Source: Escherichia coli (GTDB lineage: Bacteria > Pseudomonadota > Gammaproteobacteria > Enterobacterales > Enterobacteriaceae). From it: a stretch of 536 nt of DNA. A model generated the notes under the pieces. It did not search any database. It was not told the DNA's origin and saw nothing but the letters and a program-made list of their open reading frames with translations. Shown here in pieces: positions 70-509 of this stretch (position 1 is its first letter; each line of letters begins with the position of its first letter). Both the position numbers and the translations under genes were made by a program. Where the stretch lies: the NCBI RefSeq assembly GCF_003334335.1, contig NZ_QOWQ01000173.1; one strand, given 5' to 3'.

Positions 70-509
70 ACTTTGCCCTCAGACTGGCGCGTGAGATGGG
101 AAGACCCGACTGGCGCGCCATGCTTGCCGGGATGACATCCACCGAATATGCCGACTGGCACCGTTTTTACCGCACGCATTATTTTCAGGATACCCAGCTG
201 GATATGCATTTTTCCGGGCTGACGTACGCTGTACTCAGCCTGTTTTTTTGCGATCCGGATATGCATCCCTCTGATTTCAGTCTGCTTGTCCCCCGGCATG
301 AGGAAGAGCAGGTGGAGAGGCCGGATGAGGACAAAATGCTGATGCAGAAAGCGGCAGGACTTGCCGGAGGCGTCCGGTTCGGTGGGGACGGAGGGCGCGA
401 TATTTTATCGTCTGCGGATGTGGCGGATGTCATGGTGGATGATGCCGCATTAATGATGGCTTCAGCGGGGATTCCGGGAGGTGTGAGATATGTCCCAGCC
501 GGTTGGTGA
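1..509 (+). CDS. GT: Tail assembly chaperone G-T fusion made by -1 frameshift (equivalent to join 1..51,51..509), 5' partial
   Basis: After the slip at 45-51 the reading frame continues as ...DDDFSAGK/VFDGELNFALRLAREMGRPDWRAMLAGMTSTEYADWHRFY... to TGA at 507-509. The ATG at 96 has no usable Shine-Dalgarno (only GTGAG immediately abutting it), and the frame is open upstream to base 36. This fits T being made only as a fusion, as in lambda. Confidence 0.78.
45..51 (+). other. -1 programmed ribosomal frameshift slippery heptamer G_GGA_AAG (X_XXY_YYZ) joining G to T
   Basis: GGGAAAG at 45-51 is phased so the zero-frame codons are GGA (46-48) and AAG (49-51), the same heptamer and phasing as the lambda G/GT recoding site. 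The -1 frame has three consecutive stops (27-29, 30-32, 33-35) just upstream, then is open from 36 through 509. The zero frame stops 16 nt downstream, at 67-69. Confidence 0.8.
216..249 (+). terminator. Candidate intrinsic terminator-like hairpin plus U7 tract inside the T coding region (low confidence)
   Basis: GGCTGA (217-222) pairs with TCAGCC (235-240). After a bulged C223, GTAC (224-227) pairs with GTAC (231-234) around a 3-nt loop (228-230). Two nt later comes TTTTTTT (243-249). The same bases encode ...GLTYAVLSLFF..., so the structure may be incidental. Confidence 0.2.
476..481 (+). promoter_or_regulatory. Shine-Dalgarno sequence (GGGAGG) for the tape measure gene
   Basis: GGGAGG at 476-481 lies 8 nt upstream of ATG 490-492, which is good spacing. 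It is embedded in the 3' end of the GT coding sequence. Confidence 0.6.

Follow-up and report, generated by a model that had tools for sequence, protein, structure and literature searches.

An open reading frame annotated as a separate tail gene T in an Escherichia coli lambdoid prophage is almost certainly the T part of a lambda-type G/GT frameshift product

Results

We analyzed a stretch of 536 nucleotides of E. coli DNA (hereafter the window), which begins in the terminal part of a lambda-like gene G and ends shortly after the start codon of the tape-measure gene H. Our analysis indicates that the ORF lying between G and H is almost certainly the T part of a lambda-type G/GT product, reached through a -1 slip at the heptamer G_GGA_AAG, and not a gene of its own. 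The original prediction that this ORF is the T moiety of GT, mis-called as a standalone gene, is thereby supported by four lines of evidence: conservation of the T frame back to the heptamer, a TTC codon in place of ATG 96 in nine of 15 aligned sequences, a lack of Shine-Dalgarno (SD) sequence and the matches to family models. The mechanism itself is already known, and a further lambdoid prophage with the textbook lambda G/GT event adds nothing new to it. The value of the observation lies in annotation, since a two-gene mis-call with an arbitrary Met start has spread over more than 1,000 genomes.

Organization and occurrence of the G-T-H junction

Three coding frames are of interest in the window, every one on the + strand (Table 1). 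Gene G is read in frame 1 and ends within the window with the peptide ...EVAKNNTLTDDDFSAGKSSTAS* at stop codon TGA 67-69; the full G of the identical prophage has 143 aa. This protein matches the TIGR01674 phage_lambda_G equivalog model with 161.9 bits (cutoff 74.45), its residues 1-138 aligning to positions 1-137 of the 138 of the profile, and it also matches PHROG 42. The T frame is frame 3, that is -1 relative to G, and it is open over 36-509. On its 5' side it is shut by a cluster of TGA triplets that ends 9 nt before the heptamer. The elementary statements of the original prediction all hold on the sequence: ORF 96..509 is a real + strand ORF of 137 aa with an ATG start, the stop cluster at 27-35 lies in its frame, which is then open from 36 onwards (60 nt upstream of the ATG), and the 51-95 peptide is continuous into MGRPDWRAM.

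Table 1. Features of the 536-nt window and of the G/GT junction (positions are those of the window).
Feature	Position	Strand	Remarks
Gene G 3' end, tail assembly chaperone	1..69	+	Frame 1 translation; start outside the window
Triple TGA in the T frame	27..35	+	Reads ACT GAT GAT GAT (T-D-D-D) in the G frame
-1 slippery heptamer G_GGA_AAG	45..51	+	In register with the G codons (GGA 46-48, AAG 49-51)
Full T segment of the probable fusion	51..509	+	CDS join(G start..51, 51..509); PHROG 32165
First 15 T-frame codons after the slip, VFDGELNFALRLARE	51..95	+	Conserved as protein; no in-frame start upstream
Predicted mRNA structure, possible frameshift modulator (tentative)	59..129	+	Outer stem 59-66/122-129, inner hairpin 85-92/113-120
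ORF, rest of the T moiety; RefSeq CDS	96..509	+	ATG start, 137 aa, stop TGA 507-509; PF06223, TIGR01715
Tape-measure gene H start (MSQPVGDLVIDLSLD...)	490..536	+	ATG 490; SD GGAGG 477-481

An antisense ORF of 82 aa (185..433, minus strand) lies opposite the conserved T frame; we found no support for it and it most likely arose by chance, the coding DNA here being GC-rich. The remaining small ORFs of the window, which are located inside or opposite the strongly conserved coding frame, are likewise unsupported and were dismissed.

E. coli chromosomes contain prophages with 100% identity to the window, and copies that are at least 99% identical are present in 1,272 E. coli complete-genome records. 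Viable phages (PhiR12_1, PhiR12_2, PhiR12_4 and PhiR12_5) carry the sequence at 99.8% identity, and the DNA of the G-T-H junction of phage lambda is 77% identical to the window. In a 100% identical prophage the locus encodes, in this order, a V-like phage tail protein (2870-3616), gpG (3638-4069), T (4096-4509) and the tape measure protein (4490-7063); the same V-G-T-H order is found in PhiR12_1 and in lambda. Scanning IMG/VR with an alignment of the T peptide returned only relatives that are 97-100% identical, with eight distinct junction sequences, and so adds abundance and not information; the heptamer GGGAAAG is present in 80 out of 80 of these close relatives. A sequence search of the PDB with the 290-aa fusion gave no match, and there is no solved structure of any relative there.

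In one E. coli genome (NZ_CP103718.1, 2109431-2110677) the T gene is split by IS200C, which carries a tnpA of the IS200/IS605 family, and the two pieces are annotated separately.

Conservation of the T frame upstream of ATG 96

We aligned the junction, without gaps, in 15 sequences: the window, two Stx phages, CP-1639, lambda, 21, LLS, phi80, N15, HK225, mEp237, a Klebsiella phage, cdtI, Gifsy-1 and Gifsy-2. Conservation across 51-95 in the T frame was the test proposed with the original prediction, and the alignment came out in its favour, with a mean pairwise amino acid identity of 0.65 over this segment and a clear excess of third-position changes among the nucleotide differences (306, 288 and 562 at codon positions 1, 2 and 3, respectively). 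The identity rises to 0.78 over 72-95, the portion that lies past the G stop codon, and the segments of T that follow show values of 0.81 (following 15 residues) and 0.57 (the 36 residues after those). Within the 51-95 peptide an E, an F and the LARE motif are invariant in the 15 sequences, while stop codons are found in the other two frames in 15/15 and 11/15 of them. The tblastn alignments begin at residue 1 or 2 of the query, which correspond to the Gly-Lys of the heptamer, even for homologues with 39-45% identity.

These data bear directly on the way in which T is annotated, that is as a standalone gene starting at ATG 96 (RefSeq) or at ATG 120 (the PhiR12_1 annotation), with a free product of 137 or 129 aa. 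Such a gene does have an ORF with an ATG at 96..509, it has been called by automated and manual annotations alike, and the Met codons at ATG 120 and ATG 132 are kept in 15/15 sequences. Against it, however, the codon at 96 is ATG in just 6/15 sequences and TTC (Phe) in the other 9/15, and both the protein conservation and the curated T model reach past every candidate start, as far as the heptamer. Together with the initiation signals and the annotation records described below, this makes a standalone T gene very improbable in our judgment.

In CP-1639 and several Stx2 phages we observed that the N-terminal ~100 residues of T are shared, after which the C-terminal half diverges or terminates early. 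The T frame of CP-1639 (586-957) has 123 codons and its tblastn coverage is 66%. This pattern points to a mosaic or recombination boundary within T in these phages.

Initiation signals at the candidate start codons

As the original prediction had stated, GTGAG at 91-95 directly abuts ATG 96-98 and this ATG is not preceded by a properly spaced SD sequence. The best duplex with the anti-SD in the 20 nt before ATG 96 reaches only -2.3 kcal/mol, a value that is equalled or bettered by 75% of the positions in the 8.5-kb prophage locus. Two further ATG codons of the T frame are no better than random positions, with -1.5 kcal/mol for ATG 120 and -2.2 kcal/mol for ATG 132. In the same locus the neighbours H and G have anti-SD energies of -11.6 and -7.3 kcal/mol, and eight of the ten other annotated neighbours have values of -5.6 to -7.7 kcal/mol, the two others, Z-like (-3.3) and K (-2.4), being weak too. 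A standalone T would consequently have to start at 96, 120 or 132 with no SD at any of the three positions. Furthermore, there is no in-frame ATG, GTG or TTG between 36 and 95; as the T frame has no start codon in this interval, the conserved codons 51-95 can be reached solely from frame 1, by a -1 shift.

The choice of start codon also differs between database records. The T starts of other records fall on four non-homologous Met codons, which are equivalent to window positions 66, 78, 96 and 120, as would be expected of arbitrary start picking; we take this inconsistency as a sign that no real start exists. In the numbering of the records themselves, the differing T CDSs are 3120-3509 (one record), 4096-4509 (one), 634-954 (two), 676-948 (one) and 622-951 (one). 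In addition, Levin et al. in 1993 reportedly saw no free gpT in lambda, which also speaks against a standalone product.

A combined scheme can be envisaged, in which GT is made by frameshifting and a minor amount of free T arises by internal initiation at a conserved Met codon. The invariance of Met codons 120 and 132 and the presence of a further ATG at 96 would be in keeping with this, and leaky initiation without an SD is generally known in bacteria. However, the codons for Met120 and Met132 belong to the most conserved motif of the region, DWRxMLxxM, so that a role as start codons is not needed to explain their conservation, and initiation signals are lacking. The region is moreover predicted to be base-paired, with 113-120 and 122-129 in stems, and the lambda model places T on the tape-measure complex by way of the G moiety (PMC5009743). 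We thus hold a minor additional production of free T to be very unlikely, and retain the reading that T is made as part of the fusion.

A slippery heptamer at a conserved position and in a conserved frame

For a fusion, the original prediction had pointed to footprints in the -1 frame "from about 45", and this position corresponds to the heptamer G_GGA_AAG at 45-51. It can be read as GGA-AAG in the 0 frame and as GGG-AAA in the -1 frame, which gives Gly-Lys either way. It is the sole heptamer of the X_XXY_YYZ type within 20-80 and it sits 16 nt before the stop codon of G. Because a heptamer is just 7 nt long, its presence in any single sequence carries little weight, and the argument is its conserved position and frame. 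A -1 slip motif is present at the homologous codon pair in 15/15 aligned sequences, as GGGAAAG in the window and the lambda group, AAAAAAG in Stx1_8100 and CP-1639 (598-604 in these sequences) and GGAAAAG in the N15, phi80, cdtI and Gifsy groups. In all 15 sequences G continues for 1 to 6 further codons only after the slip, and the T frame opens just 2 to 20 codons 5' of the motif, in a part that is not conserved as T-frame protein.

G_GGA_AAG is the slippery sequence of lambda G/GT (PMC3296357 Table 1; PMC7618472). It ranks among the efficient heptamers in E. coli and G_GAA_AAG is less slippery (PMC6924986). The latter point implies that the lineages with GGAAAAG have different G:GT set-points or compensating signals.

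The break between the G and T frames could alternatively reflect mutational decay of a defective prophage, or be bridged by transcriptional slippage at the RNA level. Defective prophages are indeed common in E. coli and one genome has IS200C inside T. Several points speak against this alternative. Fifteen divergent functional phages, lambda, N15 and phi80 among them, have their frames arranged in this way and carry a slip motif at the same codon, the sequence occurs in the viable PhiR12_1/2/4/5 phages, and the A3 run is far below the homopolymer tract lengths that generally support transcriptional slippage (see PMC5009743). We consider the likelihood of either of these explanations to be negligible, and the break is best read as the site of a translational -1 slip.

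Family models and the reconstructed GT protein

The T frame scores 212.1 bits against the equivalog model TIGR01715 phage_lam_T (cutoff 77.35) and has an E-value of 7.2e-14 with Pfam PF06223 Phage_tail_T. When the ORF is taken from ATG 96 it enters TIGR01715 at profile position 12, whereas starting the peptide at 51 extends the match to positions 1-110 and raises the score by 19 bits. Position 1 of this profile aligns to the fifth codon after the slip (GAG, 63-65), so that the model begins 11 positions upstream of Met96.

We reconstructed the GT protein by joining the 138 aa of G up to the Lys of AAG 49-51 to the 152 aa of T, which yields 290 aa. PHROG 32165 is a fusion family with 290 positions, on which G aligns to 1-142 and T from 51 to 140-290. 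The reconstructed fusion matches this family in a single stretch over 1-290 of 290, with 604.3 bits.

Predicted mRNA structure 3' of the slip site

The RNA segment 52-130 has a predicted folding energy of -36.8 kcal/mol, with a z-score of -3.8 relative to dinucleotide shuffles. The outer stem of the predicted fold begins 7 nt past the heptamer, and the inner hairpin (85-120) is formed by GGCGCG/CGCGCC. In six of ten lineages (the window, lambda, phi80, N15, Kp4865-4 and Gifsy-2, p 0.003-0.013) the native sequence folds more stably than synonymous recodings of the T frame do, and such unusual stability is absent in cdtI and Gifsy-1, which lack the structure. Across the 15 homologues 86% of the pair cells hold standard pairs and seven pairs are changed on both sides, both values being higher than in all shuffles and slid controls; the structure on which these counts are made was derived from one of the 15 sequences, and the lineages are related and not independent. 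The structured stretch also encodes the most conserved T peptide (LARE-GRPDWRAM). The consensus fold given by RNAalifold is weak (-9.7 kcal/mol), and at a permissive threshold Rfam contains no known RNA family that matches the junction, two sub-threshold matches to lncRNA and snoRNA models being attributable to chance. By the usual account, the lambda site functions with no defined stimulatory structure. It is hence doubtful that a conserved two-stem structure at 59-129 serves to adjust the G:GT ratio in the group of lambda, N15 and phi80, although these predictions make it a lead worth keeping; we do not present it as a finding.

A 10-nt direct repeat, GACTGGCGCG, occurs at 82-91 and 108-117 and is read in two codon phases (R-L-A-R and D-W-R-A). 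The GGCGCG cores of the repeat and CGCGCC at 114-119 make up the inner hairpin.

Proposed expression of G and GT from the prophage

By analogy with lambda, most of the ribosomes that translate G would stop at TGA 67-69 and release gpG, of 143 aa. In a minority of them, tRNA-Gly on GGA (46-48) and tRNA-Lys on AAG (49-51) would slip one base back onto GGG-AAA; the lysine tRNA involved, as taken over from lambda, would be tRNA-Lys(mnm5s2UUU). After the slip, GTC 51-53 would be the next codon, and translation would proceed in the -1 frame as far as TGA 507-509, giving a G-T fusion of 290 aa. Met96 would be the internal residue 154 of gpGT and codons 51-95 would belong to the T domain. The slip rate would fix the GT:G ratio at a low value, as tail assembly requires.

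In lambda, gpG and gpGT are produced by -1 programmed ribosomal frameshifting (PRF) at G_GGA_AAG, where ~96% of ribosomes keep the frame, and tail assembly needs a G:GT ratio of ~30:1 (PMC5009743, PMC3296357, PMC7618472). Neither gpG nor gpGT is found in the lambda virion; G binds H and T recruits V (PMC5009743, PMC3296357, PMC7618472). The lambda G/GT frameshift was described by Levin, Hendrix & Casjens 1993 and by Xu, Hendrix & Duda 2004, 2013 and 2014 (cited in PMC5009743). For the prophage of the window, we infer from lambda that the slip occurs, that its rate is a few percent and that the proteins have the lambda functions, with the G part presumably binding the tape-measure protein H and the T part presumably recruiting the major tail protein V.

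Discussion

Consequences for annotation

The mis-call that had been predicted does exist in the public databases: RefSeq holds 96..509 as a separate CDS, WP_000533402.1, named "phage tail assembly protein T". Other records of the family have treated the junction differently. In the lambda record (J02459) the T CDS begins at the last base of the same heptamer, the N15 record has a "slippery sequence for -1 translational frameshift" annotated at the junction, the records of Gifsy-1 and Gifsy-2 describe a G+G' frameshift hybrid, and those of phages 21 and LLS contain joined CDSs. The correct annotation for the locus studied here is likewise a joined CDS, join(G start..51, 51..509), with ribosomal_slippage at 51. 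Users of the split entries inherit a protein that is probably never made and miss the probable 290-aa product, which affects proteomics databases, structure prediction and work on the sensing of phage proteins by defence systems.

Comparison with known systems

The closest known system is lambda G/GT itself, which has the identical heptamer G_GGA_AAG at the homologous Gly-Lys and the same short G tail of six codons after the slip (SSTAS* in the window versus CSTVS* in lambda). The lambda T is 74% identical to that of the window over 149 residues. The two loci differ in several details. The C-terminal region of G reads …NNTLTDDDFSAGK in the window and …AGPAEPVSAGK in lambda, where there is also no TGA cluster like that at 27-35, so that the T frame is open for 13 codons 5' of the heptamer. 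Differences are also seen in the C-terminal half of T, which is acidic and variable, and the window T is 8 aa longer (152 versus 144 aa after the slip). It ends in ...GGVRYVPAGW, four residues past the end of the lambda T (...GGVRYG), and the start of H overlaps the end of T by 20 nt in the window as compared with 8 nt in lambda. These differences in the G C-terminus, in the C-terminal half of T and in the T/H overlap leave the mechanism untouched.

The same architecture and slip position are found in N15 (gp14/gp15), phi80, HK225, cdtI, Gifsy-1 and Gifsy-2, in all of which ELxFxxxLARE is kept right after the slip. The homologues of N15, phi80, HK225, cdtI and Gifsy differ from the window in having GGAAAAG (G_GAA_AAG) as heptamer and a Phe at the position of Met96 of the window, and in cdtI and Gifsy the G stop codon comes just one codon after the slip. 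More generally, the window shares with the tail assembly chaperone frameshift of long-tailed phages (Xu et al. 2004) the same mis-annotation, as two adjacent "TAC" genes instead of one joined CDS, and this chaperone frameshift is often mis-annotated as two genes (PRFect, PMC10885494). Most of these generic cases have no sequence similarity to lambda G/T, whereas the window contains a close homologue.
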